From a virus (Duplodnaviria; Heunggongvirae; Uroviricota; Caudoviricetes), in IMG/VR virus record IMGVR_UViG_2645727901_000008: a stretch of DNA of 64,000 nt, one strand, 5' to 3'. The notes below the pieces were generated by a model, which did no database searches, was not told the DNA's origin, and worked only from the letters and a program-made list of their open reading frames with translations. Numbering within the stretch: position 1 is the first letter of the stretch; every line of letters starts with the position of its first letter. Position numbers and translations under genes: made by a program. This document shows, piece by piece, positions 7,303 to 46,007 of the stretch.

Positions 7303-7320
7303 AATGTTAGAAAACTAATT
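7303..7320 (+). promoter_or_regulatory. operator-like motif copy (AATGTTAGAAAACTAATT)
   Basis: Member of the dispersed TGTTAGAAA(A/T)(C/T)TAATTT family; abuts the stop of 7315..7893. Confidence 0.4.
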
Positions 7321-7893
7321 TATCAATTCAATCGCCATCTGATACAACGTCATTTCATCGGCATTGTGCCGCATGAAATCTGCTTTTCCGCCTATTTTTC
7401 CGTCAGCATGAACAGGGACCAGCCAGGGATATTGTTCTCGGACCTCGGCTGGCGCTGCGTACTGGTGGTGCCATTTACACAAAGGGAGGACATATTTATG
7501 CGCGTTCTCTGCCGTTCTCCCGAAGATATGGTGCAGGGATACTACTGGGCTATGTTGTCCGTGAATATGGCAGGCAATGCAGGGGAGAGTACCGATAGCG
7601 GTCTGTATCCGGCGTTCATCAGCTGTGAGTGATCTGCCCTTCAGGCCGCGTGACGTGCGTGTTTTTTTGGGCGGAGCGGATACAGCTTTATCTTTTCTCC
7701 GCTGTTCATATTGCTTTGCTTTTTCAATTTTCTTTTGCCGATATTCAGGCGATGCGGCTTTTTCTCTCGCTCGCTGCTGCTGGCGTTGAGCTTGTTGAAG
7801 GCGCTTTGCCCTTTGTTCCTCTCGCCAGGCCGGGTCAGCCAATTTTTGCATGGCTTTTTGTCTCTGTTTCTCCCAATAGCTCTGTTTCTGCAT
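7315..7893 (-). CDS. zinc-finger (Cys/His-rich) phage protein with basic coiled N-terminus, HNH/DUF968-C-terminal-like
   Basis: CIACHIHG...SLHHIFGRT...PLCKWHH cluster resembles the C-terminal Cys/His cluster of 11350..12345; flanked on both sides by operator-like motifs in inverted orientation. Confidence 0.65.
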   Translation of the reverse strand: MQKQSYWEKQRQKAMQKLADPAWREEQRAKRLQQAQRQQQRAREKAASPEYRQKKIEKAKQYEQRRKDKAVSAPPKKTRTSRGLKGRSLTADERRIQTAIGTLPCIACHIHGQHSPVVSLHHIFGRTAENAHKYVLPLCKWHHQYAAPAEVREQYPWLVPVHADGKIGGKADFMRHNADEMTLYQMAIELIN

Positions 7894-7952
7894 GATGGCA
7901 GTCTCTTACTTTTCAATGATTTTTCTATGATTGATCAAAACTGTTAGATATT

Positions 7953-7972
7953 CAAAATTGATTTTCTAACAC
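7953..7972 (-). promoter_or_regulatory. operator-like motif copy (TGTGTTAGAAAATCAATT on minus strand) with partner half-site TGTTAGA at about 7942
   Basis: About 65 nt upstream of the 7893 start codon; GTTAGA-N16-TCTAAC inverted arrangement. Confidence 0.4.
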
Positions 7973-8165
7973 AAAACATTAATATCATTCCTGATAACTG
8001 TTTGGAGGACATGATGCTTATAGCTTTAAGTGCGATCCACCAGCCATCTGTGAATGAAATTGGCCTGTTCTATGTGTTGTTTTTCGGGGCGTTGGCGCTA
8101 CTTGAGCTTGGTATTGAGCTTTTCGCAGTGCTTATGTTTTGCGTCACGATTTTGGGGAAATTTTG

Positions 8166-8789
8166 ATGGTGAAACGAGTTTTGAAAATTTACATCGCGGG
8201 GCCGATGACTGGTTATCCAGATTACAACCGTGCTGCGTTTAATGCGAAAGCGAGCGAGCTGATGGCTGAAGGGCATATCGTTCTGAATCCAGCTGTGTTA
8301 CCTGGTGGCCTTTGTCAGAGTGAATACATGGATATTTGCCTGGCAATGGTGCGTTCTGCTGATGCGATCTACTTGCTCAATCGATGGGAGGAATCGATTG
8401 GTGCTCGTGCAGAGCACGCGCTGGCTGAAAAGCTGGGGCTGACTGTAATTTATGAATCACCAACCAACATTGAATGCCAGGTTGCTCCGCATATTTACCG
8501 GGAACTGGTCAATGCGTTACGTGATGTTGCTATTGAATGTCACGGCACGGATCAGCTTCGCGCTCGCTTAAGCCAAACCCTTTCCAGTTACCTGTCTTTG
8601 GCTGAAGGATACAACCTCCGACAGCGAAGAATGGTCAAATTAATCACTCTTTTATCGCAATCCCTTGCAAATGCTGAACCAACCAATCCGCTACCTGGTG
8701 ACGCAATGAATTATCTGAAGTCATGCGGTGTTGTTTCTGAAGATGCAGTTCGTTTTGTGGAGTTTATGTCTCGGAGGATGTCGGCGTGA
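8166..8789 (+). CDS. DUF4406-like (nucleoside deoxyribosyltransferase-fold) phage protein
   Basis: KIYIAGPMTGYPDYN motif; start moved to MVKRVLK with GGGGA RBS. C-terminal ~35 aa resemble 16882..17505. Confidence 0.6.
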   Translation: MVKRVLKIYIAGPMTGYPDYNRAAFNAKASELMAEGHIVLNPAVLPGGLCQSEYMDICLAMVRSADAIYLLNRWEESIGARAEHALAEKLGLTVIYESPTNIECQVAPHIYRELVNALRDVAIECHGTDQLRARLSQTLSSYLSLAEGYNLRQRRMVKLITLLSQSLANAEPTNPLPGDAMNYLKSCGVVSEDAVRFVEFMSRRMSA

Positions 8790-9103
8790 GCTGGCGGGGA
8801 TGGGGAAGGGCAGAAATCATGATACTCCGCCAGTGCGCCGGAACTATGACGGTAGAGAGTATTGGGAAGCTGATCGGTCGTACCGGTGATGCCGTCAGGA
8901 CTAAAGCGCGGGAGCTGGGGATCAGCATGATTCTGAAAGGAGACTTTCATCCGTCAGCCAAATACCGGCAGAGCGATATAGAACTGGCACGGCAGCTTCA
9001 TCAGTGTGGTGTTCCCCGCCGTGAGATCGCGGAAAAACTCGAAATGCCCCTGGGCATGATTAATCAGTACGTTTATTTCGAAAGGAGAGTACATGAAGTC
9101 TGA
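8786..9103 (+). CDS. small helix-turn-helix-like protein
   Basis: Overlapping start/stop with neighbours; SIGKLIGRTGDAVRTKARELG HTH-like stretch. Confidence 0.5.
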   Translation: MSWRGWGRAEIMILRQCAGTMTVESIGKLIGRTGDAVRTKARELGISMILKGDFHPSAKYRQSDIELARQLHQCGVPRREIAEKLEMPLGMINQYVYFERRVHEV

Positions 9104-9518
9104 AGGTTTAACGCCAGAGCAACTGGCGGAGCGTAACGCTCAGTATGTGACGGAAATTTCCCGTCTTGAGAAAGAGCGCGCGGCGCTGGCGGCGGAGAAT
9201 GCAGGGCTAAAGGCGATATGTGATGACTGTCGCAGGTTCATCATGAATGGTGTGCAGATGGGTTATATCAAGGTGCCAACAGCGGAAACAGATCCAGACC
9301 TTGAGACAATACGTATTGCTATATCACCACAAAAGCCCATTCCAGCCACCGATGCTTTTCTGGCTGAAGTCCGGGCACAGGGATTGGAGATGTTTGCTCA
9401 GAAATGTAACTCAAAATCAGAACAGTCGATTGCATCTGATATACGCGATAACTGGAAACTACTCGGTGAACATGCCACTGACTTTGCCGCAGAGCTTCGC
9501 AAGGGAGGGAAACAGTGA
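9093..9518 (+). CDS. hypothetical phage early protein (coiled-coil N-terminus)
   Basis: 141-aa ORF in an operon of overlapping genes. Confidence 0.55.
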   Translation: MKSEGLTPEQLAERNAQYVTEISRLEKERAALAAENAGLKAICDDCRRFIMNGVQMGYIKVPTAETDPDLETIRIAISPQKPIPATDAFLAEVRAQGLEMFAQKCNSKSEQSIASDIRDNWKLLGEHATDFAAELRKGGKQ

Positions 9519-9763
9519 GTAATTCAGCACGACTACAGCTTGGTTTTTCACCGCTATCAAAAACCATCGTGTTGGCAAAAATGCGTGACTTAGGGGATGG
9601 AACAAAACGTCGTGTTGGCAATGATCGCGGTCGTGATGTAACCAACGAGGCCGCTCAACTCGTCTGGCATCTGGTCATGGCAGAAGGCGGTGAAATTAAT
9701 TGGGAGCTGGATGATGGTTCGCGCATGGTATTGAAGGCAGAAAAGCAGGAGCCACCACAGTGA
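9515..9763 (+). CDS. hypothetical protein
   Basis: 82 aa; 4-nt overlap with the upstream gene. Confidence 0.5.
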   Translation: MSNSARLQLGFSPLSKTIVLAKMRDLGDGTKRRVGNDRGRDVTNEAAQLVWHLVMAEGGEINWELDDGSRMVLKAEKQEPPQ

Positions 9764-11252: not shown

Positions 11253-11292
11253 TCAAATCATTTACGCACTCAAAATGCGTTAGAACATTGAT

Positions 11293-11312
11293 TTTAGTTT
11301 TCTAACATATTA
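11293..11312 (-). promoter_or_regulatory. operator-like motif copy (ATGTTAGAAAACTAAAAT on minus strand) with GTTAGAA partner at about 11279
   Basis: Intergenic, between the phosphatase and DUF968-like genes; GTTAGAA-N14-TTCTAAC inverted repeat. Confidence 0.4.
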
Positions 11313-16519: not shown

Positions 16520-16525
16520 ATTTAT

Positions 16526-19353: not shown

Positions 19354-20160
19354 TTAGGCGTCAGCATCAGCATCCTCCGCTACCTCTGCTTCCACATCAG
19401 CCACGGCTTCATCGGACGGTTCTTCTTTGGCCTGATCTGCAATCGCCGCACGGCATTTCGCCCTGGCTGTAGCGATTGCTTCAGCTCGCACATCATCAGG
19501 AATCGTTGACGTGATATACATATCCACTTCTTCGGCGCGGAACACTGTTTGGTCCAGATATTCGCGTAGCATCCAGGTAAATTCGAAATCACACGCGATA
19601 ATCTCTGCGCTACCTTCTGCACCATTTGAGAAATGAATAAATGCCTGTTTAGCCAAACCGATAACACGACATGCGGTTGCCAAAACAGCGACAACTAGGT
19701 TTACATTTTCACACGCTACGGGCTGATTAACGCCGGAGATTACTCCATTTAACTGTCGGTTATATGGAAGGTAGTTTGAGATGCGTTCTACGCGCCATGT
19801 GCCAGTCAGGCTGCCATTTTTAAATATAATTGGTGTAACGGATAGCCCAAGCTCGCGTATAAGTCGTTGCGCTATAGCAGGATCATTAAACAGGTCTAAT
19901 GCTATACATTCGAAAGACTGCGCAAGGGCAAACAGTTCTTCCAGAGAGTAGTCTTTGCCCCTGGCGGTGATGTAACGACGAACGCCGCTGTCTGCATCAC
20001 TCCATATAGCTACGCCATGCTCTTCATTCAGCACTTCATTAAAGCCGAGATACGTCATGATAGTGCGTTCAATCGTGTCAAACGGCAGTGACATGTCGGC
20101 GTTAACAGCCACCAGCAGGCCATTACGCAAGCGGTATTGAATTGTTTTGGTGCTTTCCAT
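19354..20160 (-). CDS. hypothetical protein with acidic Ala/Glu/Asp-rich C-terminal tail
   Basis: 268 aa; last gene of a minus-strand operon starting near 22167. Confidence 0.6.
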   Translation of the reverse strand: MESTKTIQYRLRNGLLVAVNADMSLPFDTIERTIMTYLGFNEVLNEEHGVAIWSDADSGVRRYITARGKDYSLEELFALAQSFECIALDLFNDPAIAQRLIRELGLSVTPIIFKNGSLTGTWRVERISNYLPYNRQLNGVISGVNQPVACENVNLVVAVLATACRVIGLAKQAFIHFSNGAEGSAEIIACDFEFTWMLREYLDQTVFRAEEVDMYITSTIPDDVRAEAIATARAKCRAAIADQAKEEPSDEAVADVEAEVAEDADADA

Positions 20161-20166
20161 GTCAAA

Positions 20167-20844
20167 TCACTCCACTACAAACCAGTCACATGCCAGTAAG
20201 TCGCCTACAGAAGGAACCCACGGAACAACTACACCTTGTGCATTTTTTAAGGCGAAATAAGCACCATACGGAACGAGGTCGCCGGGGAAATATCCCTTAA
20301 TGGGTTCCATTCGTGCCGGGTACTGTCCTTCAGGAACCAGCCAGCAGAATTGGTTTTCGCCGTTCCACCCGCGTCGAGCAACTTTCTTGCCATCCTTCAG
20401 CCACATCAGCGCGTCAGAAAAGTCGGCTGCTTCAAGGTCGATTTCTTCTTGCTGGGTGGTGATGCCACCAGCAGAAATAGTTACGCTCCCGGTAAGATTA
20501 ATCATCACGCCGTTGTCATCCGTAATGATGACCGTGGTTCCATTTTTGGCGGCGTCGTTAACCAGGCCATAGCGTTCCTCAAATGGTTTCTCCGGGGCAT
20601 AGAACAAATAACCGTTTTCATAAACGATCAGATACCCGCCAGTTTTTGGTCGGTGTTTTTGTAAAAACATTGCGTCAACACAAACTGTTGCCCCTTTTGG
20701 CTCAACGAGTTCGATGCAGCCCCAAAGTGGGGCATCAGTTACTCCGAAAATAACAACATTTTTGATTTTCGATGCACTAACGTTTTTGTGAGCTTTGTAT
20801 TTGGGAAGGAACTTAAAAAGCTCTTTCGTTGCCATGTTATTCAT
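20167..20844 (-). CDS. phage protein with C-terminal DUF2829-like module
   Basis: C-terminus WLKDGKKVARRGWNG...WVPSVGDLLACDWFV matches the 66-aa proteins at 43311 and 34221. Confidence 0.6.
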   Translation of the reverse strand: MNNMATKELFKFLPKYKAHKNVSASKIKNVVIFGVTDAPLWGCIELVEPKGATVCVDAMFLQKHRPKTGGYLIVYENGYLFYAPEKPFEERYGLVNDAAKNGTTVIITDDNGVMINLTGSVTISAGGITTQQEEIDLEAADFSDALMWLKDGKKVARRGWNGENQFCWLVPEGQYPARMEPIKGYFPGDLVPYGAYFALKNAQGVVVPWVPSVGDLLACDWFVVE

Positions 20845-20858
20845 AGTCTTTTCTCTGC

Positions 20859-21353
20859 TTATAACTTTTCGTACTGAAGCGGTGAACGCTTAATTTCAAA
20901 GTGGCCTTCCGATGTGCTACCAAAGCCACCAGCACCACGTTCCGTTTCGTTGAGTTCCTCAACCTCGACTAGTGAGACTTGTTCAACACGCTCAAAAATG
21001 CCTTGCATGACAGCCATTCCTGGCTTGAGACAAACGCCTTCCCCGCCGGGATCAGTAATCAGTTTTGCCATGATTTCACCGCGATAATCGGAGTCGATAA
21101 TTCCTACGCAGTTAGCCAGGCGAGTATGTTTTTTGCAGCCCAATCCGGATCGCGGATAGAGTTTCAGACACCAGCCGGGCGGGATCTCCATAGCCAGTCC
21201 GGTATACACCCACCAGCTTGAGGAAATTGCACCATTGCTATCGACGCATGTTTTTATTTCAACAGCCTCAAAATCCATCGCCGCCGATCCGGAGGTGGCA
21301 TAAGCTGGAAGTTTTGCTGCCGGATGTAGGCGTTTCACTTTTACGTAAATCAT
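20859..21353 (-). CDS. dut: dUTP diphosphatase (dUTPase)
   Basis: All dUTPase motifs present: AAMDF, YPRSGL, GIIDSDYRGE, RGAGGFGSTS. Confidence 0.85.
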   Translation of the reverse strand: MIYVKVKRLHPAAKLPAYATSGSAAMDFEAVEIKTCVDSNGAISSSWWVYTGLAMEIPPGWCLKLYPRSGLGCKKHTRLANCVGIIDSDYRGEIMAKLITDPGGEGVCLKPGMAVMQGIFERVEQVSLVEVEELNETERGAGGFGSTSEGHFEIKRSPLQYEKL

Positions 21354-21826
21354 TGTTTTTTAGCTCTCTGCGTGAAGGTGTAAACCCGACGTTTGATATG
21401 TGGAACGGTAGGAACAGGAAGACAGGAACTTTCAATAACCCCTTGCTCCTCCAGCGATCGCACCGCCCGCAAGAACTGCGACGTGTCGCCGCCAAACTGG
21501 CGGGCATAGGTGCTGCCGTTAAGAAGTATTTGAGCTATTACCCGAGCTTTTGTCTGGCTGTCACGATATGCGAATAGCCGCACGGCCTCTTCTGGCGCAA
21601 TCGCTAACTGATAGCCTTTACCGGCACGGTGTCGAATGAATCCATGCGCCAGTAGGTTTTTGAGTTCGTTACGAGTGCGAACAGATCCGTAATCCAGGAA
21701 GTGCGGATTAATAACGACTGGCTTAAACCATTCCGTAGGTGCTTTAGCTAATAGAGCTAACAGCTTTCCGGACAATTCTGGATAGGAAGACGGGTAACAA
21801 TTCAGAGATGGGTAATAAGTTTTCAC
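21350..21826 (-). CDS. hypothetical protein (possible winged-helix DNA-binding)
   Basis: 158 aa; overlaps neighbours by 4 nt on both sides. Confidence 0.5.
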   Translation of the reverse strand: MKTYYPSLNCYPSSYPELSGKLLALLAKAPTEWFKPVVINPHFLDYGSVRTRNELKNLLAHGFIRHRAGKGYQLAIAPEEAVRLFAYRDSQTKARVIAQILLNGSTYARQFGGDTSQFLRAVRSLEEQGVIESSCLPVPTVPHIKRRVYTFTQRAKKQ

Positions 21827-22167
21827 CGACGCCCCCTTGCAGGATATCGACCTGCATCAGTATCCGGTGCGATAAAGCCGGTAGTGGGGCGAGTGAAAGC
21901 GAGATTAATCTTCTCGACCATAGTGCGATAATTTTCCTGATAGTGGGCCAGGAGTTTTTCGGCGGCAATGATGGTTACTTTCCGGACGTAGCTTTCTGCT
22001 TCCTCCAGATTTCGCCAGTTTTTTTCGAGGGTAAACACAGGGACGGCCTCAAGCCCGGTCATGATGCCGAATACAACGACAGCATGACTGTTCTTAACAC
22101 CAGCAGCGAAGGTTACGGTGTAACCATCCACCTTAAAGCGTCTTGATTCCGTGATTTGACTCTGCAA
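21823..22167 (-). CDS. hypothetical protein, first gene of the dut operon
   Basis: 114 aa; operator-like motif about 55 nt upstream. Confidence 0.5.
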   Translation of the reverse strand: MQSQITESRRFKVDGYTVTFAAGVKNSHAVVVFGIMTGLEAVPVFTLEKNWRNLEEAESYVRKVTIIAAEKLLAHYQENYRTMVEKINLAFTRPTTGFIAPDTDAGRYPARGRR

Positions 22168-22221
22168 AGCACCCTCCGAAATAGGCGAGGGTACTTTACA
22201 GCAAAGATAACAATCTAAAAA

Positions 22222-22241
22222 GATGTGTTAGAAATTTAATT
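22222..22241 (+). promoter_or_regulatory. operator-like motif copy (TGTGTTAGAAATTTAATTTA)
   Basis: Near-identical to the copy at 45988-46007; between the dut operon start and the recombinase stop. Confidence 0.4.
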
Positions 22242-23269
22242 TATGAATCCATCAGGCGGCTATTAGCCCCCACAGACACGCCGCCACGGCGCAGATACCG
22301 CATAAGTGTTTCCGGTTTCTTCCAGGTTCCTTCCTGCATGATCTCCACCATAGACACCTGCTTTTCAGCCATATCGATAGCGGCCCCGACACGAGCACTA
22401 TGCCCGGTCCACGTCCGGTATCTCCCTTTGTTTGGCGTGGCATCTCTTTTATTCAGCAACACCCAGGCGTCGCTGAATATTTTCTCCATTGCAGGTGCAG
22501 TAAGGGGAGTTGTCGTAATCCTGGCCTTATTGCTACGGTGTATCGGCGGGAACAGCACCGCGTCAGGATGTTCACGAAGCCCGGAAACATCCAGCCAGTC
22601 ATTCAGCACTGCGGTAGTGCGACGGGAAAGCACCTTATCAAGCCCGGCGGCGGTCGTTATTGTCTTCGTGTGTGAAATATGTAGCGTGACAGTGTCACCT
22701 GTTTGGTCCAGATCTCCTACACGAATACGCGAGATTTCAGACATTCGCATCAGCGTATTGTATGCAACGAAGAGGAAAGCCCGGTTACGCAGGTCCACCA
22801 GCCGTTCTGACCTGGACAACAGGACGTCGAGCAGTTTCAGATCGTCCCACCGCAGCGGTATAGCCTGGCCTGTTCGTTCGCCTTTTTCCGTTGCCGCTTC
22901 GCGCCGGATGCGCCGCATAGCCAGAGAAACACTTTTATCATCCGAAAGTGGCGGAAGGCCACAATGCGAAAGCAGCATGTTAAGCATGGCGTAGTGCTTA
23001 TCAATGGTGGTCGAAGCCAGATCAGCATCATGCAGCTGAAGAAAATACTCGCGGGCCATCTCTGGTGAGATCGGGAACCAAGCGAGCTGGCGAGCGTGGC
23101 ACCATCGCGCCCAGGAGTGAAACACTAACCGGAGATCGCGCAAAGTATTCGGCGCGTAAGCCCCCTGGTCATTCATGAACCGCATAAAGTTTTCTGCGGC
23201 CTCCTGGTACTCTTTGCCAATGTTGCGCAGAAAACCACCGGAGCTGCCAGAGATAATTAATTCACTCAT
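22241..23269 (-). CDS. dre: Cre-family tyrosine recombinase (Dre-like)
   Basis: 342 aa; C-terminal catalytic region RYRTWTGHSARVGAAIDMAEKQVSMVEIMQEGTWKKPETLMRYLRR aligns with Cre (...WSGHSARVGAARDMARAGVSIPEIMQAGGWTNVNIVMNYIR); a rox-type 14-4-14 site lies about 150 bp upstream. Confidence 0.85.
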   Translation of the reverse strand: MSELIISGSSGGFLRNIGKEYQEAAENFMRFMNDQGAYAPNTLRDLRLVFHSWARWCHARQLAWFPISPEMAREYFLQLHDADLASTTIDKHYAMLNMLLSHCGLPPLSDDKSVSLAMRRIRREAATEKGERTGQAIPLRWDDLKLLDVLLSRSERLVDLRNRAFLFVAYNTLMRMSEISRIRVGDLDQTGDTVTLHISHTKTITTAAGLDKVLSRRTTAVLNDWLDVSGLREHPDAVLFPPIHRSNKARITTTPLTAPAMEKIFSDAWVLLNKRDATPNKGRYRTWTGHSARVGAAIDMAEKQVSMVEIMQEGTWKKPETLMRYLRRGGVSVGANSRLMDS

Positions 23270-23420
23270 GAAACTATTTAACCTCTATATACAGATGACG
23301 CTACGCAAAAATATAAAAATGACAGGGTAGCTATAAGTTAATTTTCAAAATTCAAGCCTTTGATTCGAGGCACGTATTTTTAGTGATGTCAACACTGATC
23401 ATCTACCCATGATTATAGTC

Positions 23421-23452
23421 TAACTTTAAATAATGCCAATTATCTAAAGTTA
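23421..23452. other. lox/rox-type recombination site (14-bp inverted arms, 4-bp spacer)
   Basis: TAACTTTAAATAAT-GCCA-ATTATCTAAAGTTA; arms are inverted repeats with one mismatch; differs by one base from the rox site as I recall it. Confidence 0.8.
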
Positions 23453-23625
23453 GAAACTTAGGAATTTTTTTCCTTTCCCCGTAGATGGGCAATGCATTGC
23501 TGGCGTGGGCTTTAAGTTATGCCTGGCAGTTTTTAAGCAGAATTTTCTAAATTGGATGACAAAAAAATGCATCTTGATCCTTTACTCACCCTGTTATTCG
23601 GCATAGATTTGTCATAGTAATTTTA

Positions 23626-23645
23626 TGTTAGAAAACTAAATCGAG
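23626..23645 (+). promoter_or_regulatory. operator-like motif copy (TATGTTAGAAAACTAAATCG)
   Basis: About 12 nt upstream of the 23654 start codon. Confidence 0.4.
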
Positions 23646-23653
23646 TAGGAATA

Positions 23654-24691
23654 ATGAGTAAGAAGTCGATCGAGAAAGAGTACAAACGGTTCCTGCAAAC
23701 CGCTGAACGGTGGAAAGAGCTGGTGGTCGCAAACTCTGTTTTCCATGATACCAGTTATGCCGGCGAGGAATTCCGCCACGTTGCACTAACACATGATCAG
23801 AATGTACTAGAAGAAGCTGAAAAGTGCCTCACAGAATGGAAAGCCTTTGTTGACTTGTGCCGTAACGCTGACGGCAAAGCGTCCAACATTGTTGAGTCTG
23901 TATATTCTCCGATCCCATTCATTATTGAGGACACAAATCAAAGCACGCATATTGTTGTGCAAAGCGCGACCACCACCCGCTCATTTACGCGCGAAAATCT
24001 GCTCAAAAAATATGATGCAATTATAAAGAAAAGCCTGAAAAACAAGATATTTTCGCAGATTGTTGGTGCACTTGAAGAAGAGCGCCGTTTTTTCGCATCA
24101 GAACCTGAAGGGGAAGTTTACCGGGCGCGCAAAGATGGATACACAGATGTAGTGCTTACAACAAACATTGAAGGCAGCAATGCTCTGTCACGATTCAGGG
24201 TAGGCGCACACGGAGCCTTAGTGTTCGCAAAACTTCCGAACACCACAGTGCCCGTTGTTAATAATGTCGGCGAACGTCGCAGCATTACTATTTATTCTGG
24301 GGTTGAGTCGATACCTTGCGGCCTGCTTGGTGACTTTAGCCTCTATCGCGTTCGCGATCTGGAGAAACACCAACCAAGCTATGTTGCGAAGTCATATATC
24401 TTGCGAAACATCGACATCCGCAATGAGAGCTTAAAGAACAAATCAGCCAAAATGCTTGAGGAAGCCGATCCGGCTATTCGCCATATCATTGAGCGTAAAA
24501 TACAGACAGCACGCGAAGCGATGGCGAGACTGAATAAAATGGATCTGGAGTTGTTAGACGTAATGATGACATCCGGAGATGACCTGACAGGCATAAAACT
24601 GACAGACGCGCGGAAAAGATACGGTAAAACCATAGAAGAACGTTACGGGTTCACTTTCTCCCAAACACAGCACGCCGCTAAACTCTGGTAA
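23654..24691 (+). CDS. hypothetical protein at the c1-equivalent position between the recombinase and pac genes (candidate regulator)
   Basis: 345-aa ORF divergent from the recombinase; operator-like motif just upstream; no recognisable similarity to P1 C1 by eye. Confidence 0.55.
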   Translation: MSKKSIEKEYKRFLQTAERWKELVVANSVFHDTSYAGEEFRHVALTHDQNVLEEAEKCLTEWKAFVDLCRNADGKASNIVESVYSPIPFIIEDTNQSTHIVVQSATTTRSFTRENLLKKYDAIIKKSLKNKIFSQIVGALEEERRFFASEPEGEVYRARKDGYTDVVLTTNIEGSNALSRFRVGAHGALVFAKLPNTTVPVVNNVGERRSITIYSGVESIPCGLLGDFSLYRVRDLEKHQPSYVAKSYILRNIDIRNESLKNKSAKMLEEADPAIRHIIERKIQTAREAMARLNKMDLELLDVMMTSGDDLTGIKLTDARKRYGKTIEERYGFTFSQTQHAAKLW

Positions 24692-24716
24692 TCACAAGCC
24701 CCGCATTGCCGGGGCT

Positions 24717-27589: not shown

Positions 27590-27978
27590 AAAGCAACACC
27601 ACGCTTTTTAACGGCGGCATTCCACAGCTTATTCGCCATGTCCACCAGCTCTCGTTGCTCTTTTCGCGCCTGTTCGACTGATTTCCTGCTACAGTTTTTA
27701 ACCAGTAAGCTACCGTATTCAGGCGTGCGCCCGCGCACCTTGAACTGATATCCGTTCAGACCATGTAGCCAATATTTTCGTGGATACACACGATCATCCA
27801 GCTCACAGATTGCCCTGCTTGAACGAACAAAATGACGAATGATGTTAGTTACACTTACTCGTGAAACATGGAGATGAGGGTATTTTTCTTTGGCGAGAGT
27901 GGTAATTTCAGTGACTGTCAGATAGCAGTCAGCCCTGATCATGATATCCGCAATTTCTGCGCTGCTGATTTGTTCCAT
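27586..27978 (-). CDS. small regulatory-type protein upstream of the pac genes (Lpa-like position)
   Basis: 130 aa; first gene of the pac operon; weak operator-like motif at about 28056-28075. Confidence 0.5.
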   Translation of the reverse strand: MEQISSAEIADIMIRADCYLTVTEITTLAKEKYPHLHVSRVSVTNIIRHFVRSSRAICELDDRVYPRKYWLHGLNGYQFKVRGRTPEYGSLLVKNCSRKSVEQARKEQRELVDMANKLWNAAVKKRGVAL

Positions 27979-28055
27979 TAATCCCCCGGGCAGGAAATGA
28001 CCGAGGGGATGATAATGAGAATGTTAAAACTGTATAGACTGGTAAAAAGATGATT

Positions 28056-28075
28056 ATATTAGAAAATTAATATTA
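28056..28075 (+). promoter_or_regulatory. weak operator-like motif copy (ATTAGAAAATTAATATTAAA)
   Basis: Partial match to the dispersed motif, upstream of the pac operon. Confidence 0.25.
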
Positions 28076-28086
28076 AATACCTAACG

Positions 28087-28479
28087 CTACCAGCGAGACA
28101 AACGAACAACATGTTTCACTTTTGCGATCCACTTTCCGCGATAACTATTGATTACGGCCTGTGCCAGCTTCAAATTGGCTTCAAAATCAGCCTTACTACC
28201 ATCAGACTCCACCAGCATTCCTCCATCTATTTCTGGTAAACATAGATAATCCTGCTCAACCTGCAGCGGCATTGATGGCTCTCTGAATGGCGTTACTTGC
28301 TCTGCTTTCCAGCGAAATCTAACCCTCATCCCCCTGGTGGTCATTACTAGATAGCCTGTTATAGTGCTTTTATGGCCCACATCAGTACGCGTGGCATTGC
28401 ATGACACGATCTTACAGTTAGCGATAGACCACTCCATATTGGTGGCCTGTTGAGTGCTTAATTTGGTAGTCCCGTACAT
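28087..28479 (-). CDS. hypothetical protein
   Basis: 130 aa; coupled to the upstream gene. Confidence 0.5.
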   Translation of the reverse strand: MYGTTKLSTQQATNMEWSIANCKIVSCNATRTDVGHKSTITGYLVMTTRGMRVRFRWKAEQVTPFREPSMPLQVEQDYLCLPEIDGGMLVESDGSKADFEANLKLAQAVINSYRGKWIAKVKHVVRLSRW

Positions 28480-29508: not shown

Positions 29509-29584
29509 TGGTGGCCCCTACCGGACTTGAACCGGTGACCGTGCGATTATGAGTCGCCAGCTCTAACCACTGAGCTAAAGGGCC
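29509..29584 (-). tRNA. tRNA with CAU anticodon (Ile2/lysidine-type, or Met)
   Basis: 76 nt with encoded CCA; sequence is very close to E. coli tRNA-Ile2 (ileX) as recalled. Confidence 0.85.
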
Positions 29585-29594
29585 AATTAGTGTT

Positions 29595-29708
29595 TTATTT
29601 TCGACGCCTGAGATTCTTCGCGACTTGTTCTACGCCGTATACGATCACAAGTAGAAACAGCAAAAACCATCCAGGGTTCTTATCGATATACGTCCAAAAA
29701 TCCATCAT
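29595..29708 (-). CDS. micro membrane protein (37 aa)
   Basis: MMDFWTYIDKNPGWFLLFLLVIVYGVEQVAKNLRRRK; start overlaps upstream stop (ATGA); below track cutoff. Confidence 0.3.
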   Translation of the reverse strand: MMDFWTYIDKNPGWFLLFLLVIVYGVEQVAKNLRRRK

Positions 29709-29869
29709 GAGTTCCTGAACGCACCTTCAATAATCGGCAATAGCAATACCACAGCTACTGAAACTAATGCCCCATCAGCCAACACCGACATCACTTTGCT
29801 GGTGAAATCCACCAGTACGGACAAAACGAGAAAGCCAATGGCGCCCGCAATACGCGCCTTGCCAATCAT
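29705..29869 (-). CDS. small membrane protein (54 aa)
   Basis: MIGKARIAGAIGFLVLSVLVDF...; start overlaps the TerB-like stop (TAATG). Confidence 0.35.
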   Translation of the reverse strand: MIGKARIAGAIGFLVLSVLVDFTSKVMSVLADGALVSVAVVLLLPIIEGAFRNS

Positions 29870-30324
29870 TACAGATAATCTTCCACACGAAGGCCAAGAC
29901 GGCGACCAACCTCTTCCAGAACCTTATGCTCCGCAGGTTCGATTTCACCATCTGCTTCAGCGATCGTGAGCATGTTCACGAAGACTTCTTCCGCTTCTTT
30001 GGGATCGTTTTTGATATCTTCAATTTCGCGGAGGATATTCATGCGACCAACACGGAAACCAGCTTCCAGTTGCTCAGTAAAACGGGTGATTGTTGCGGTA
30101 ATTTCGTTGCCAAAATGACTTAAGCGAGGATTAGAGCGGACAAGCTGATCAAGTTTCGCTGTTTCTTCCTTTTCGATTTCACCATCTGCGGCAGACACCA
30201 GCAAACAGCCACCGATGATGGCCTCCATCAGATCGCGATTCTCAACCCTTTTCAGCTCTACTTTTGCTGAAGCGACTTTCTTACCGAAAAATTTACCGAA
30301 CATTGGTTTTCCCTCAATAAACAT
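29869..30324 (-). CDS. TerB-like protein (tellurite-resistance TerB fold)
   Basis: Two AADGEIE/AEADGEIE repeats typical of TerB-like domains. Confidence 0.65.
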   Translation of the reverse strand: MFIEGKPMFGKFFGKKVASAKVELKRVENRDLMEAIIGGCLLVSAADGEIEKEETAKLDQLVRSNPRLSHFGNEITATITRFTEQLEAGFRVGRMNILREIEDIKNDPKEAEEVFVNMLTIAEADGEIEPAEHKVLEEVGRRLGLRVEDYL

Positions 30325-30570
30325 GACGTATTTATTAGGTTGCGGTGCCTGGTGCCTCCAGGTGACGTTAACCAGTTAACAATTAACGCCGGGATTTTTG
30401 TCTTCACAATTAAGGAGGATTGTTTTAACTGTTCCGCGTGCGCTTAGCCGCATTCACCGCAATGGTAAGAGCACTTGGCTGGCTGGGCGGCGATGACGCC
30501 TGTACGCATTTGGTGAACCGGTTCTGCTTCCGGCATTCGCTTAATTAGCCAAATACTCTTAACGTTGCAC

Positions 30571-30657
30571 TGGCGGAGAGTAATGGAATCGAACCATCAT
30601 CGCTTGCGCAATGGGACGGTTTTCAAGACCGCTTGAGCACCATGCTCCCTACTCTCC
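30571..30657 (-). tRNA. class II tRNA, anticodon UGA (Ser-like), atypical short D-arm
   Basis: Perfect 7-bp acceptor stem plus CCA; anticodon loop CUUGAAA; long variable arm; T-loop TTCGATT. Confidence 0.55.
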
Positions 30658-30794
30658 CGTTATTGTGGCGACCGGTGCTGATCTCCGGCTTGCGGTTATT
30701 TCAGACTCTCACGGGCGTTTAATTGCCCCGCCGAACAGCTCTTTTCCGCAATAGCTGCAATGTCTTTCGCGCATCAGCCTGCGCATTCACCACA

Positions 30795-30878
30795 ATGTTG
30801 AGAACACTGGTTGTCACGCTGCAACGCAACATTTATTCGTAGATTGGGATATGACCCCGTTACGCCAGTGTTCTCAAC
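30795..30878. repeat. 13-bp perfect inverted repeat pair (TTGAGAACACTGG / CCAGTGTTCTCAA) with about 58-nt spacer
   Basis: Lies between tRNA genes in noncoding sequence. Confidence 0.4.
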
Positions 30879-31028
30879 GTTGTAGTGCCGGTTACGGTTC
30901 CGGCCAGGCCTCTTCCTCAACGGGTTGTTCTCCATACGGACTACCGTTTATTGGTCGTTCCTGCGGTTTATGTTGTGAAGCCAGATGCTTATCTTCTGGT
31001 TGCTTCAAAGAGCTGCACTTCATCACAA

Positions 31029-31100
31029 CGGTAAGGGTACTTCGTAGGGATTCGAACCCTCTGCCAAGCACGGCGATCTCCGACGTCGCAAAATACCCTT
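31029..31100 (-). other. tRNA-like structured element or tRNA remnant
   Basis: Contains a GGTTCGAATCC T-arm-like segment enclosed by a perfect 10-bp inverted repeat (GGTAAGGGTA / TACCCTTACC); no canonical D-arm. Confidence 0.25.
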
Positions 31101-31111
31101 ACCTGTTGCGT

Positions 31112-31187
31112 TGGTGCCGATTAACGGGATCGAACCGCTGACCATTCGCTTACAAAGCGACTGCTCTACCAACTGAGCTAAACCGGC
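31112..31187 (-). tRNA. tRNA-Thr (anticodon UGU)
   Basis: 76 nt; canonical cloverleaf; anticodon loop TTTGTAA; T-loop GGTTCGATCC; CCA encoded. Confidence 0.85.
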
Positions 31188-31191
31188 AATT

Positions 31192-31278
31192 TGGTGGGGA
31201 GTGATGGAGTCGAACCACCCGAGTCGCAATGACAGTAGATTTACAGTCTACCCCGCTACCCCTACGGACTAACTCCCC
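31192..31278 (-). tRNA. tRNA-Tyr (anticodon GUA), class II
   Basis: 87 nt; acceptor GGGGAGT/ACTCCCC; anticodon loop CTGTAAA; long variable arm. Confidence 0.8.
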
Positions 31279-31283
31279 TAAAG

Positions 31284-31360
31284 TGGCGATGGTGGGTGGA
31301 TTCGAACCACCGACCGACAGCTTAGAAGGCTGCTGCTCTATCCTACTGAGCTACACCATC
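31284..31360 (-). tRNA. tRNA-Arg (anticodon UCU)
   Basis: 77 nt; anticodon loop CTTCTAA; T-loop GGTTCGAATCC; CCA encoded. Confidence 0.8.
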
Positions 31361-32429
31361 ACTTGCCGGGTACGTCTCCGGCGAGGGCTTCCACCTCCGT
31401 ATGCTTTTCGGCGCACCGCGCCCTGGCTGCAATTCAGTAACAGGGGATGCATAACCCTGGCTTCCAGCGTGATTAGCGCCTTCAGCATGACGGGATATAC
31501 CCGTAACCAACAAACTTTCCCATATACCATCAAACAATGGCTGTTACGCGGGAGGGACGTAACAGGTAAGGGCGCTGACCAGAAAGACCTGACCCTTCTC
31601 ATTCATCTGGTTAATCACACCAGCGCCCTTGCCTGTTATGTCTCCCCGTTCCCTAATACACAGACGGGGACACTCTGCGGTCGATTTTTTGACGGGGGAC
31701 GACTCATACCCCGTGGCGTCTGGCTTCTTAGGCCGCTACCATCATCAGATCATCGTTTGCATTTACTTTAATGGTCGGTTTCTAAACCGCCGCAAAGCCG
31801 CTAACCATGACGAAAACCCTAAAAAAGCCCACCCGAAGATGGGCAAATACGCTACATCTCACACAAGAAAGAAGCCGACTGCCTGAGCTGGATTCACTTT
31901 CAAATGCCCGCAGAAAGGGAACACAAGTCGGCTTCTTTCTTGATGCGGCACTCTCTCCGCCCGTCACCGTTCTGTCTCGGTTGTCGCGTTTGCCACGCCA
32001 GCCGTAACGAGGTTTAAAGTCTTTGCACGTTTCCATCACTCGACTGCCGTCTGTGGCTGTTCGTTGCAGCGGGGGTGCCTCCCCCTGGGGATATCCCCGG
32101 CCTTACCCCATTCTTTCAAGACACAATGCAAGGCCGCATCCGCATAGGTGCATTACCGCAACATTAAGGAGACTTAGGGCAAAAGGTAATCGCCACAAAA
32201 AAAATCCCTATGCCTCCTTAATGTTGAGGATGTGCATTGATGATGATTCGATGCGGCGAGTCCCGTTACTCTCTGCCGGACCATCATCAATGAACATCTT
32301 AAAAAGACCTTCCGTGGCTCAACATGTCTTGTCGTTTACTCCGTAAAGTGCTCTCTCTGAAACCACTTTACGCACTAAACCTGCTGAACTTTGGCTTGCT
32401 CGGTGCCAAAGCGAGTCCCTGTATGTATG

Positions 32430-32450
32430 TAATTTTCTAACACTTTAATT
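32430..32450 (-). promoter_or_regulatory. operator-like motif copy
   Basis: taattTTCTAACActttaat on the plus strand. Confidence 0.35.
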
Positions 32451-32585
32451 TGTTATTTGCTGGTGGGCGAACAACAACCAATAAGTGACTATCAAGCCCA
32501 GCAAGCGAAATGTGGCAACGCTCCACCAGCAAGGAAAATTCTAAGTTAAGTTACTCTCACAATCAATACGTTCGTTTAGTGAAAT

Positions 32586-32605
32586 TAGATTTCTAACATT
32601 TTATT
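32586..32605 (-). promoter_or_regulatory. operator-like motif copy abutting the stop of 32601..33809
   Basis: agatTTCTAACAttttattt on the plus strand. Confidence 0.35.
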
Positions 32606-33809: not shown

Positions 33810-33835
33810 TGCAGTTCCCATTGTTTTTTGCAAGA

Positions 33836-33855
33836 TTAGTTTTCTAACATATTTT
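33836..33855 (-). promoter_or_regulatory. operator-like motif copy (AAATATGTTAGAAAACTAAT on minus strand)
   Basis: About 30-45 nt upstream of the 33809 start; identical core to the copy at 11293-11312. Confidence 0.4.
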
Positions 33856-34435: not shown

Positions 34436-34879
34436 TTAATCAAGACAAACATATTCCGTGATAGCTTTTATGGCTTCATCGGCACTGCGCGCCTCAAAGC
34501 AGTAATAGCCTGCTTCCGTGAGGCGAGTCATCCAGACGAGCTGTTCGGGAGTCAGACGGTTTCTCCCGTGCTTCATCTCAATGCGCATTCCGTGATACCC
34601 ACCACGAGCAAGGTCAATAGAAAGGTCCGGATAGCCCTTCTTCTGACCTTCTGCCACCATCTTAATGGCTGTCCTTTTGCCTCTCAGGCCGCCGTTCGGT
34701 GTTGAGTGTGTGTGCTCATACACGTATCGCATGTTGCGATACAGCCAATCCAGAACGCGAACCTGTTCGTAATGTTCGTAATTCCGTTTTAATAAGTCAG
34801 GATTTCTTTCTAACTCTCTCAGTGCAGCAGCGTGCGGGGATATTTCAGAATACGCACTATGATGCCTGCGTCTTCGCAT
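34436..34879 (-). CDS. VRR-NUC domain nuclease-like protein (PD-(D/E)xK fold)
   Basis: KKGYPDLSIDLARGGYHGMRIEMKHG carries the PD...E.K motif; operator-like motif directly upstream. Confidence 0.6.
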   Translation of the reverse strand: MRRRRHHSAYSEISPHAAALRELERNPDLLKRNYEHYEQVRVLDWLYRNMRYVYEHTHSTPNGGLRGKRTAIKMVAEGQKKGYPDLSIDLARGGYHGMRIEMKHGRNRLTPEQLVWMTRLTEAGYYCFEARSADEAIKAITEYVCLD

Positions 34880-34880
34880 C

Positions 34881-34900
34881 AAATTTCTAACACAAACTTA
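34881..34900 (-). promoter_or_regulatory. operator-like motif copy (TGTGTTAGAAATTT on minus strand)
   Basis: aaaTTTCTAACACAaactta on the plus strand; immediately 5' of the VRR-NUC start. Confidence 0.35.
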
Positions 34901-35067: not shown

Positions 35068-35328
35068 TTAATGGTTTATTTTATCAGGTTCGTTAATTTC
35101 CGTAACCGCCTTGTCGATAGCAATCATCCATCCTTCATAGGATAAATCATCAACAAGTCCCACCAGCTTATCGTCAGTGTGCGGAAAATAAATCCATCCC
35201 CATTTCGAAGGGTTTCCTATATGCCGCAGGGTAAATACCCGCTTATAACGGTGGTATTCAAGGGCGTATCCCTTCCCTTGTGAGTACGCTTTTAAGTCGT
35301 CGATCGTAAACCTACGATTCTTCCGCAT
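35068..35328 (-). CDS. hypothetical protein
   Basis: 86 aa; coupled to the upstream gene. Confidence 0.5.
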   Translation of the reverse strand: MRKNRRFTIDDLKAYSQGKGYALEYHRYKRVFTLRHIGNPSKWGWIYFPHTDDKLVGLVDDLSYEGWMIAIDKAVTEINEPDKINH

Positions 35329-43278: not shown

Positions 43279-43281
43279 AAA

Positions 43282-43305: not shown

Positions 43306-43310
43306 ACGCT

Positions 43311-43511
43311 TCAATTCACGATCCAATCATTACCGACTATATCAGCCGTCGATAAATCAACTTCCCGGATCTGGAGTCCATTAATACAAAACCATCCGGT
43401 AGTAGAGTAATTATCAGGCCAGGCCCATACACCAACACTCCATGCTTTACGGCGGCACACTTCAGCCTGTCCTTCCCTGATTTTTTTTACCGCCTGCATG
43501 ATGTCCATCAC
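43311..43511 (-). CDS. DUF2829-like small protein
   Basis: 66 aa; start overlaps the Rha stop (ATGA); CRRKAWSVGVWAWP...GNDWIV. Confidence 0.6.
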   Translation of the reverse strand: MMDIMQAVKKIREGQAEVCRRKAWSVGVWAWPDNYSTTGWFCINGLQIREVDLSTADIVGNDWIVN

Positions 43512-44215: not shown

Positions 44216-44439
44216 CAGTGAGCCTCCGCAATGCCGGGATTGGTAATATTGCGATACCAGGGATTGGTGTTTGGTTGTGGGGAAGTGGAGAAACGACCAG
44301 TGAGAACGCCATACTGATCAGGGATCAGAGAACGGGCTTCTTTTTCAGTTGCGGCAATTGCGAAGTGATCGCAGTGTTTTTGCAGGGAGTGAAAACGCCA
44401 GATGAATTCTGGACGTGAGCAAGGATTGGCATTAACCAT
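44215..44439 (-). CDS. small Icd-like protein, copy 2
   Basis: 74 aa; paralog of 6288..6503; stop overlaps Rha start. Confidence 0.6.
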   Translation of the reverse strand: MVNANPCSRPEFIWRFHSLQKHCDHFAIAATEKEARSLIPDQYGVLTGRFSTSPQPNTNPWYRNITNPGIAEAH

Positions 44440-44570
44440 AGTTACGGCCTCACTAACAGGTTTAACAACCTGCTACCCGCTGCTAAACAGGTGGCAGGAC
44501 GTGACGGGGTTAGCAGACTGGCGTTAGTGAAACCAGCAGGCCGAAGCCTCCCCATCACGCCCCACCATAA
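44440..44570 (-). ncRNA. candidate c4-like antisense/leader RNA region (copy 2)
   Basis: Minus-strand RNA has UUCACUAAC (about 44523-44531) complementary to GUUAGUGAGG spanning the icd-like SD (about 44448-44457), and CUGCUAACC pairing with GUUUAGCAG. Confidence 0.3.
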
Positions 44571-44785
44571 TTTGGGCGTAACGCGGTTTTACGGACACAA
44601 AAATACCGCAATATCGGATATCTGCGGTTGTCCGCACTAACATTCAGGCTGCTAAACCCGGTCGCAGAATTTGCTACGACGACATGAATATAAGCCTGAA
44701 AACATGGAAGATCAACTAAAAATTTCAGCAATAGATGACTTCAGTCGATGATGCAGATCATACATTCCGATTTAGAAACGGCAAA

Positions 44786-44805
44786 TTAATTTTCTAACAC
44801 AAAAT
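44786..44805 (-). promoter_or_regulatory. operator-like motif copy with inverted partner (TTAGAAA-N12-TTTCTAA)
   Basis: atTTAGAAAcggcaaattaaTTTTCTAACACaaaatg. Confidence 0.4.
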
Positions 44806-44853
44806 GTCGAGCGAGCATTTTCCGATCATTGGGATGTTTTGTAGACGCACAGG

Positions 44854-45816
44854 TCACCCCCTAAAGCCAGCCGGGATTGACCAATCCTCACGGTCAAATT
44901 CAGACCGATAGCCACGCTGTTTCATCAGGTCAAAGGCTTCACCAATGGTTGCACACCCCTGGGAGCCAGAATAATCCATTGAGAAATCCAGGGCACTGGA
45001 TTGTTTAGGCTTATTCACTGCGGTAGCGGCACTACGTATCCATGCAAATTTTTTTGCCAGCTTTTCAGCGGTACGATACAGAGCCTGCCGTTTTGTGTGC
45101 CCCTCGTCTGAACGACGCTTTGCAGCTCTCGCTTTTGCCGCCGCCAGGCAGTGGTTGGTCTGTTCTTCCCTGATTACTGTTTTTTTATCCAGCACCCCGT
45201 TATCCGTTTGAGAACTATCTGCTGGTGAAGCCTTTGGCTGAACCGCGCATGATCTTTCTCTTCTTTTGGCTATAGAGTGACTCTTATTTTCTATTGGCTG
45301 TTCATTTTGAACATGGGGGGACTTGTTCAATTTGAACAGGGGGTTCCCAGTTTCAAAAAAATAACGAACCTTTGAAATCAACTGCTTAACCAGTTTTGTG
45401 GCGTTGGCAAATTTGATGCCCTGCTTACCCCCTATCTCCATTGCTACATGAATGAAGTGGAGAAATTGTGTCGTAAACCGATATACGTTACACACCTGGG
45501 CATTGTTATTCGCTACCTGATGTTGCTTAACAAGCATTCCGCACTTCGTCGCTTCAGCAAATGCCCGGCGTACAGTAGAAATACTGCGTCCTGTAATCTC
45601 GGACATATCAGCATATGAGCGACGGATCATGTATTCATCGGTAGACCCTGCCAGGTTGGCGAACTCGGCAATAATGGCGCTATGTGAAGGGGAAAGAAGA
45701 CCGCTATGACGAGCAAAAAAACTCAACTGATGACCTTTGATTTTTTTGTGGTATTCAGTGTTGTTTTTATACTCAGAAGTGTTGAAAGTTACTGAAACTG
45801 AATTTAAAATATTCAT
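44854..45816 (-). CDS. hypothetical DNA-binding protein (possible replication/regulatory protein)
   Basis: 320 aa; HTH-like stretch SISTVRRAFAEATKCGMLV; basic C-terminal half. Confidence 0.55.
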   Translation of the reverse strand: MNILNSVSVTFNTSEYKNNTEYHKKIKGHQLSFFARHSGLLSPSHSAIIAEFANLAGSTDEYMIRRSYADMSEITGRSISTVRRAFAEATKCGMLVKQHQVANNNAQVCNVYRFTTQFLHFIHVAMEIGGKQGIKFANATKLVKQLISKVRYFFETGNPLFKLNKSPHVQNEQPIENKSHSIAKRRERSCAVQPKASPADSSQTDNGVLDKKTVIREEQTNHCLAAAKARAAKRRSDEGHTKRQALYRTAEKLAKKFAWIRSAATAVNKPKQSSALDFSMDYSGSQGCATIGEAFDLMKQRGYRSEFDREDWSIPAGFRG

Positions 45817-45879
45817 CAGATAGTTCCGTGCAAAAATCTATCTACCGTATAAATCTATGCCAGTGGATTTATACACCAA

Positions 45880-45912
45880 AAAGCCGCTTCTCAGCGGCTT
45901 TTGCTTTTTTTG
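45880..45912. terminator. bidirectional rho-independent terminator
   Basis: AAAAAGCCGC-TTCTCA-GCGGCTTTTGCTTTTTTT. Confidence 0.5.
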
Positions 45913-45987
45913 GCAGTCGCTACCGGAGCAGTGACCGCGATCCTACTCAATCACATCGGACAGGATCAACAGTGTATATAAATACAC

Positions 45988-46007
45988 TATGTTAGAAATT
46001 TAATTTC
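45988..46007 (+). promoter_or_regulatory. operator-like motif copy (TATGTTAGAAATTTAATTTC) next to palindrome AGTGTATATAAATACACT
   Basis: Near-identical to the copy at 22222-22241. Confidence 0.4.

Follow-up and report, generated by a model that had tools for sequence, protein, structure and literature searches.

What does an asymmetric 18-bp word do when it recurs, in both orientations, at one gene junction after another of a prophage? The question is raised by the virus record IMGVR_UViG_2645727901_000008, of which a stretch of 64,000 nucleotides was analysed (this whole stretch is called the window below). An earlier note, made from the letters alone, had pointed out dispersed copies of such a word, likened them to the dispersed asymmetric operators of the P1 C1 repressor and proposed a single master repressor, with the product of the open reading frame (ORF) 23654..24691 as candidate. 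Judged by its sequence, the window is about two-thirds of a D6-like, P1-family plasmid prophage, given its identity to phage D6 and its collinearity with it apart from a few replaced segments. Gene names are transferred from the D6 record (MF356679; Gilcrease & Casjens 2018). In P1, C1 keeps the prophage silent via dispersed operators at early and lytic-control promoters (PMC8546580), a scheme with 22 asymmetric 17-bp operators in which C1 controls RepL and Lpa (PMC8546580). The answer given here, which we hold to be very probably right, is that the word would be the operator of the element's own C1-type master repressor, the product of 23654..24691.

The repetition is well beyond chance. In a pattern scan of the 64-kb window, the 18-bp consensus RTGTTAGAAAAYTAATTT has 12 matches at up to three mismatches, when 0.25 would be expected, and none of 100 shuffles reached that count. 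Weight-matrix scores are bimodal, with the 12 sites at 20.8-30.3 bits, the next site (34876-34893, minus strand) at 17.3 bits, lower scores at 1535 (minus, 14.1 bits), 28070 (minus, 12.3 bits) and 7941 (plus, 12.0 bits), and all others at 9 bits or less. The matches start at 7304 (+), 7955 (-), 11277 (+), 11291 (-), 22225 (+), 23625 (+), 28056 (+), 32426 (-), 32582 (-), 33833 (-), 44783 (-) and 45989 (+), each within 4 nt of a copy in the earlier note. The copy that the note placed at 34881 is the 17.3-bit site; the one at 28056, which it had ranked as weak, is a full site of 25.5 bits, and its other weak copy, at 6755, is no site at all, with a score of -5 bits and a position within an isrK-like RNA. 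The 14.1-bit copy, ATGTTATAAAAACAATTA (1535-1552, minus strand), is intergenic between the mat and simB homologues and may be a further low-affinity operator.

The shape of the word is equally constant. Positions 4-9 (TTAGAA) are invariant and T2, G3 and A10 are each present in 11 of the 12 sites, so that the head reads TGTTAGAAA, while the 3' tail is AT-rich and looser. In nine of the 12 strong sites, no strong inverted copy is found at the offset of the bivalent sites, although 44783 and 32582 have a marginal one. The inverted half-sites that had been claimed for several copies stand up at three places (7941/7955, 11277/11291 and 28056/28070), where two inverted 18-mers overlap by 4 bp of their tails to make bivalent sites spanning 32 bp (7941-7972, 11277-11308 and 28056-28087), and where the partner half-sites score in about the top 0.01% of the background. 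There is no flanking similarity among copies, the repeat being limited to 18 bp. The sites and the presumed binder are as follows.

7304..7321, plus strand: operator, 30.3 bits, includes the ref stop codon; upstream of a second immI-like module
7941..7972, both strands: bivalent operator, 7955 (-) at 27.1 bits with its partner 7941 (+) at 12.0 bits (top 0.013% of background)
11277..11308, both strands: bivalent operator, 20.8 and 26.7 bits, between ppp and the pdcB...pmgU operon
22225..22242, plus strand: operator, 28.8 bits, adjoins the dre stop codon and precedes the minus-strand operon orf117-orf116-dut-isaA
23543..23553, minus strand: distal c1 copy, inverted and degenerate (ATTTTCTAAAT), about 90 bp ahead of the proximal operator, under the matrix threshold
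23625..23642, plus strand: c1-proximal operator, 25.7 bits, 11 nt before the c1 ATG; presumed autoregulation
23654..24691, plus strand: c1, D6-type C1 repressor (345 aa), presumed binder of the motif; 94% DNA identity to D6 c1
28056..28087, both strands: bivalent operator, 25.5 and 12.3 bits, upstream of lpa-pacA-pacB
32426..32443, minus strand: operator, 22.6 bits, the second of the tRNA transcription unit, about 95 bp downstream of TTGATT-N17-TAGAAT
32582..32599, minus strand: operator, 28.8 bits, 2 nt past the pmgS stop codon and 15 bp before the promoter-like site TTGATT-N17-TAGAAT
33833..33850, minus strand: operator, 27.4 bits, immediately preceded by a TAAAAT hexamer, with the pmgS start 11 nt further on and a terminator upstream
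34876..34893, minus strand: weak operator, 17.3 bits, about 25 nt downstream of the pmgM promoter-like TTGATA-N16-TGnTATTAT (34945-34918)
44783..44800, minus strand: immI operator, 30.3 bits, its tail overlapping the -35 of TTGCCG-N16-TATGAT
45989..46006, plus strand: operator, 29.2 bits, 10 nt past the pro stop codon and upstream of repL (lytic replication)

All these sites lie outside coding sequence except for a few bases at two stop codons. The claim that every copy is intergenic thus holds in general, the exceptions being the ref TAG contained in the site at 7304 and the 2 nt that the site at 22225 shares with the dre TAA. The D6 genome has 14 copies, at the same places as in the window, and 14 of 14 fall in the 10.5% of D6 that is not coding sequence (P about 1e-12), save 7 and 2 nt at the ref and dre stops. 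An equal frequency in coding DNA, which the earlier note had named as fatal to its proposal, is not what is seen. Among IMG/VR sequences, the exact 17-mer occurs at 104 loci, 68 of them D6-like and the rest single matches with little or no similarity to the window, two of which come from one contig.

The units that the sites precede are largely units with C1 operators in P1, and the operons that had been singled out (the dre-adjacent operon, both immI-like C4-icd-ant modules and lpa-pacA-pacB) are all preceded by sites. The bivalent site at 7941..7972 separates ref (minus strand) from an early operon that diverges from it on the plus strand, with its start near 8054. The head of the lpa operator at 28056 is overlapped by a perfect TATAAT on the minus strand, and the lpa product matches PF25716 (E 5e-57). 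At c1 and pmgM, the operators are 15-30 nt downstream of promoter-like pairs. The operator at 44783 is followed by a second promoter, a1b1 targets, a C4 RNA, icd and a Rha/Roi-type antirepressor. The promoter scan clearly overlaps an operator at immI only, and the other promoter relations given here come from manual reading of the sequence. Near the remaining sites no promoter is recognisable.

Two of these regions deserve a word of their own. There are two separate immI-like modules (6558-6768 and 44487-44693), in each of which icd and a Rha-type antirepressor come after a C4 antisense RNA, and both are preceded by a C1-type operator; in Rfam searches the first also has an isrK-like small RNA, with its antirepressor on the minus strand, and the second has c4-a1b1 at 44641-44693 and C4 at 44487-44572. 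The other is the segment of about 1.2 kb that separates pmgS from the tRNA cluster (31361-32580), in which there is no Rfam or PHROG match and no recognisable gene, and which holds two operators, a promoter-like site and a strong terminator (31844-31827); the comparable position in P1, behind Oban, is taken by a dicF-like region. In the promoter scan, the TTGATT-N17-TAGAAT site is directed at the minus-strand tRNA cluster (31360-29509).

Is there a suitable repressor? In BLASTP, the product of 23654..24691 is 20% identical to P1 C1 (283 aa) over 239 aa (E 8e-8), and with P1 C1 as query nothing else was found in the window. Its homologues all carry the precomputed PF27008 assignment (Phage_P7_repressor_C1), and its class in PHROGs is 'unknown function'. 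The family is small, with 110 clusters at 50% identity among 1.84 billion proteins; R41, P88, R159 and G187 are invariant in it, to which the D6 clade adds R113/E114, R157 and R182, and the invariant residues fall mostly on predicted beta-strands in a structural model. By sequence comparison, the protein is best described as a distant homologue of P1 C1.

Among relatives, the word keeps company with this type of repressor. By tblastn, this C1 type is encoded on 157 PLSDB plasmids, in identity classes of 99, 90, 81 and 72%, after which identity drops to below 30%. The core TGTTAGAAA is found at the same junctions in the representatives of the 81% and 72% classes. Metagenomic and assembly contigs with a C1 of 52, 50 and 45% identity have the same synteny. 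In these, TGTTAGAAAA follows the recombinase, precedes lpa, flanks the pmgS homologue and stands before c1 as two inverted copies about 90 bp apart, while the tails of the sites have drifted. The core is absent in a Pantoea element whose C1 is 29% identical, and a de novo search for an operator word in Pantoea pPSP-26e (C1 29% identical) gave no convincing motif in the 27 kb examined. It is thus kept at 45-81% C1 identity and gone below 30%, which speaks for the single master repressor and for the candidate that had been put forward. A P1-like element on a 94-kb contig from Logan SRR31513766 (L015) has the same synteny and encodes a third type of C1, of 269 aa and 24-27% identity; five intergenic copies of aCGTTAGGAta (CGTTAGGA) are found in it, at 3538, 7173, 8215, 13844 and 17848, and none in coding DNA. 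This word, which has a GTTAG core in common with that of the D6 type, is presumably the third type's own operator word. Across relatives, the operator word would thus appear to follow the repressor type, a correspondence that is confounded by the overall divergence of the elements.

Individual sites are conserved as well. An alignment of the region upstream of c1 in seven relatives reveals three conserved blocks in otherwise diverged DNA, which are the proximal operator (the best conserved), a TTTACT-N17-TAAATT promoter-like pair, downstream of which the proximal operator is placed, and the distal inverted copy. The last is degenerate in the window and a full TGTTAGAAAAA site at the same place in L012-L014. 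The site at 22225 is kept before the orf117 homologue in L009, L010 and L012-L014, even when 120 bp from the recombinase stop codon, the 32582/32426 pair is kept downstream of the pmgS homologue in L012, L009 and L010, and the weak site at 34876 is kept in L009, L010 and L013.

The sites also correspond to operators of P1 itself. When compared junction by junction with the protein_bind features of the P1 RefSeq record (NC_005856.1), the sites pair up as follows.

P1 Oref, before ref: window 7941/7955
P1 Omat, overlapping the ref stop codon: window 7304, which includes the ref stop codon
P1 Olpa (Op94), before lpa: window 28056/28070
P1 Oc1ab, bivalent at Pc1: window 23625, 11 nt before the c1 ATG
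P1 Oc4, whose tail overlaps the -35 of P2c4, followed by P1c4, the a1/b1 targets, C4 RNA, icd and ant: window 44783
P1 OrepL (Op53), before kilA-repL: window 45989, before repL
P1 OpmgRa/b ('controls expression of pmgR and pmgS'): window 33833
P1 O26 and Oppp, flanking pmgL-pmgM: window 34876 (weak)
P1 Odmt, before uhr-hrdC-dmt: D6 64115/64129, beyond the window
P1 Oban, bivalent, before a dicF-like region and tRNA genes: window 32582 and 32426

Both ref operators have the same orientation relative to ref in the window and in P1. OpmgRa and OpmgRb are found directly after ppp-pmgQ in P1 and were also compared with the window site 11277..11308, which comes after ppp. The site at 22225, which precedes the orf117-dut operon, has no P1 counterpart. 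Operators that adjoin a stop codon are usual in P1 (Omat, Orlf, OpmgRa, OpmgT and Olpa), and the stop-abutting sites of the window are therefore accounted for. The likeness to P1 that was suspected from the pattern of copies is thus borne out in silico, at the level of the same gene junctions and the same bivalent arrangement.

Other explanations have nevertheless to be weighed. The one that survives best, though we consider it improbable, is that the sites are bound by another DNA-binding protein, either from the element (a Rha/Roi-type antirepressor or RepL) or from the host (IHF, Fis or Tus), and that the co-occurrence with C1 is incidental. The motif is AT-rich, the antirepressor ORFs have domains resembling helix-turn-helix, the c1-proximal site loosely resembles TerB and the assignment to C1 is made from sequence. 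However, the resemblance to TerB falls short of significance (P 0.06-0.8), the sites lack the Ter core GTTGTAAC, which is strictly conserved, the motif goes with the type of C1 among relatives, and the site-by-site match to the experimentally founded C1 operators of P1 is hard to explain otherwise.

Still less probable is that the word would be a late-promoter element for the Lpa activator, a counterpart of the P1 -22 box, rather than a repressor site. Some copies do flank 'morphogenetic' genes (pmgS and pmgM), and the P1 -22 box AAGTGACTT is not enriched in the window; a scan of the window for this box gave two matches, which are not significant and are unrelated to the motif. However, late-promoter elements would hardly be expected before c1, lpa itself, ref, repL and the immI modules, all of them early units or units under C1 control in P1, and no copy is found among the head, tail and lysis genes, which take up 18 kb (46-64 kb), nor inside 35-44 kb. 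In addition, the pmgR-pmgS and pmgL-pmgM regions have annotated C1 operators in P1, and the distance from the site to the -10 hexamer is variable. This reading is disfavoured because the distribution of the motif argues against it. Least credible of all, to the point of being negligible, is that a short repeat, mobile or derived from recombination, left these copies behind and that they regulate nothing, as their two orientations and their placement at gene boundaries might suggest, for the repeat is 18 bp only and without flanking similarity, target duplications or terminal repeats, and its positions are kept across relatives whose intergenic DNA has otherwise diverged.

The assignment of the word to C1 also has points that weigh against it. 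Few sites overlap a promoter recognised by a simple scan, those at 7304 and 22225 are at least 60 bp from any recognisable promoter, and a terminator-like hairpin follows the latter. That motif and repressor type occur together is, as said above, confounded by the overall divergence of the elements, and no natural c1 swap that would separate the two was found. Finally, two accessory components of the P1 circuit are not recognisable in the window: tblastn of P1 Coi detected no homologue, and no Lxc homologue was seen, although P1 Lxc was never used as query and tblastn was run only with the positional candidate ORF. Lxc was not detected in a D6-like plasmid either (PMC6799933). Because the Coi homologue was not found and that of Lxc was not seen, the accessory circuitry may differ from that of P1, or analogues that share no sequence similarity may take their place.

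The positional candidate is an 86-aa ORF (35068-35328, minus strand) directly after the ulx homologue, which in tblastn has no P1 match and matches only D6. It is 72% identical to D6 orf13, when its flanks are about 94% identical, and it sits at what we take to be the place where lxc follows ulx on the P1 map. A possible interpretation is that it is an Lxc analogue co-varying with C1.

How would a C1-controlled regulon work in this element? In the prophage state, a C1 monomer would most likely bind each asymmetric 18-bp site, with its invariant head TGTTAGAA and AT-rich tail YTAATTT, and the three bivalent sites would take two molecules each. At least ten transcription units would be silenced in this way, namely c1 itself, ref together with the early operon that diverges from it, the pdcB-pmgU operon, the dut operon next to dre, lpa-pacAB (with all late genes as well, via Lpa), repL, both C4-icd-antirepressor modules, pmgS, pmgM and a tRNA operon. 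As in P1, operators would act in one of several ways, by overlapping promoter hexamers, by directly following them or as a roadblock just downstream, and the promoter relations read in the window appear to fit this scheme in part. The sites, their statistics, their conservation, their positional match to P1 and the homology of the repressor were all observed in this analysis; from them we infer that it is C1 that binds, as a monomer, and that it represses by doing so.

The genomic setting is that of a common type of element. In megablast, window positions 20000-28000 are 94% identical to phage D6 and have about 105 plasmid matches over their full length, at 95-97% identity, from E. coli, Salmonella and Shigella, in which D6-like phage-plasmids are common. 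Resistance genes are present on some P1-family elements. The identity of the window to D6 is 94-97% for the greater part of its length; whole-window BLAST shows the two to be collinear from D6 70.6 kb via the rox origin to 41.4 kb, with several segments replaced relative to D6 (1630-5078, 9212-9757 and about 12.7-17.2 kb). The genes in 20000-28000 are, by the D6 immC record, dut, dre (which encodes a Cre-like recombinase), rox, c1, pacB, pacA and lpa, and the order dre-rox-c1-pacB-pacA-lpa is the same in the window, D6 and P1. In the rox region, a near-consensus sigma-70 promoter (TTGGCA-N16-TATAAT, 11/12; 23412-23439, minus strand) directed at dre outranks every other promoter-like site in the scanned regions and has no overlapping operator. 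The tRNA set differs from that of D6: ARAGORN and Rfam identify five tRNA genes (Met, Ser, Thr, Tyr and Arg) at 29509-31360 on the minus strand of the window, whereas the D6 record has three (Ser, Thr and Asn) at the corresponding place on the plus strand, so that both strand and set disagree. Chi sites (GCTGGTGG) are about 25-fold over-represented window-wide, with 38 copies (13 plus, 25 minus) when about 1.5 would be expected from base composition.

The kind of system described here is textbook P1 biology, and no principle is added beyond P1. The D6-type operator word is unannotated in both D6 GenBank records, and among the open-access papers searched, none gives the motif string or links D6-like elements to C1 operators. 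The word and the map of its copies delineate the repressor regulon of the D6-like group. They also offer a sequence marker for immunity groups, TGTTAGAAA for the D6 type, TTGCTCTAAT for P1 and CGTTAGGA for the third type, and a ready-made orthogonal repressor/operator pair beside Dre/rox from the same phage.

How C1 might read an asymmetric site is suggested by its predicted fold. An AlphaFold2 model made with a 14-sequence alignment (mean pLDDT 85.7, pTM 0.56) was compared by Foldseek with the Protein Data Bank (PDB), and the four significant matches were all E. coli Tus-Ter complexes (E 5e-8 to 1.6e-6; next match E 0.2), over about 305 aligned columns with a template modelling (TM) score of 0.37-0.43. 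The model thus has a Tus-type two-domain alpha+beta fold over most of the chain. A fold search of BFVD gave no significant match, phmmer and hmmsearch searches of PDB sequences found nothing that links C1 to Tus, and hhalign of a 95-sequence C1 profile with a Tus alignment gave a weak signal, with a probability of 2.9% and an E of 0.015, over 91 collinear columns (C1 85-175/Tus 145-247). The Tus profile was shallow because the Tus homologues retrieved are all more than 81% identical. The resemblance of folds seen in the model is probably real. It is an even bet whether PF27008 C1 repressors have the Tus fold, possibly by Tus ancestry, and read their operator in a Tus-like manner, with one monomer clamping the duplex and beta-strands in the major groove. 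C1 would in that case clamp DNA between its two domains, with arginine-bearing beta-strands in the groove, so that a monomer could read an asymmetric 18-bp site. The likeness between operator and TerB (TATGTT...AACTAAA), striking by eye, was set aside, its scores not being above those of shuffled Ter (P 0.06, 0.41 and 0.84), and no Ter-like word with the core GTTGTAAC is present in the operators. No paper connecting C1 with Tus was found. If true, a Tus-like fold would account for the long-known monomeric, non-palindromic operator recognition by P1 C1, and would link the narrowly distributed Tus-Ter fork trap to a family of mobile-element repressors; if confirmed, it would offer a possible relative for Tus, whose origin is obscure.

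How does the system compare with those already known? Tus (PF05472; PDB 1ECR and 4XR0-2), the only PDB fold matched by the window C1 model, is a monomer whose asymmetric binding site is about 20 bp long, and C1 too would bind an asymmetric site, presumably as a monomer. TerB is 10 nt before the tus ATG, much as the c1 operator is 11 nt before that of c1. Unlike Tus, C1 carries a further helical domain at its C-terminus, the two DNA words show no significant likeness, and while Tus arrests replication forks, C1 would repress transcription. The close kin of the window are D6-like plasmid prophages such as pYU39_89.

The comparison with the C1 system of P1 and P7, whose asymmetric 17-bp operators (Op2, Op51, Op53, Op68, Op72, Op82-88, Op94 and Op99; ATTGCTCTAATAAATTT) are dispersed, is more telling. 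As in P1, a homologous repressor gene is found in the same immC context (lox/rox, recombinase, c1, pacBA and lpa), the 17-18-bp asymmetric site is dispersed in 12-14 or more copies at gene junctions, often abutting stops, and the targets are ref, the operon after ref, C4-icd-ant, repL, lpa, c1, pmgS, dmt/hrdC and tRNA operons. The bivalent operators are likewise made of inverted copies with heads outward and AT-rich tails overlapping (as in P1 Oc1ab and Obanab), and the operator tail overlaps the -35 of the immI promoter. Unlike in P1, the bivalent span is 32 bp (28 bp in P1), c1 is preceded by one strong operator and a degenerate distal copy (P1 has five operators there), there are two immI-like modules instead of one, and the repressor, which is 20% identical, is 62 aa longer via a C-terminal helical extension. 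The operator word itself differs, RTGTTAGAAAAYTAATTT having only its AATTT tail in common with the P1 word, which has no match at up to three mismatches in the 64-kb window. D6 c1 is reported by Sauer and McDermott (2004) to be divergent in sequence, which the differing operator word fits. Because the P1 operator word is absent and only the AATTT tail is common, the system in the window is, as far as its sequence goes, of the P1 kind and of a different specificity group, and D6-type and P1 phages would be expected to be heteroimmune.

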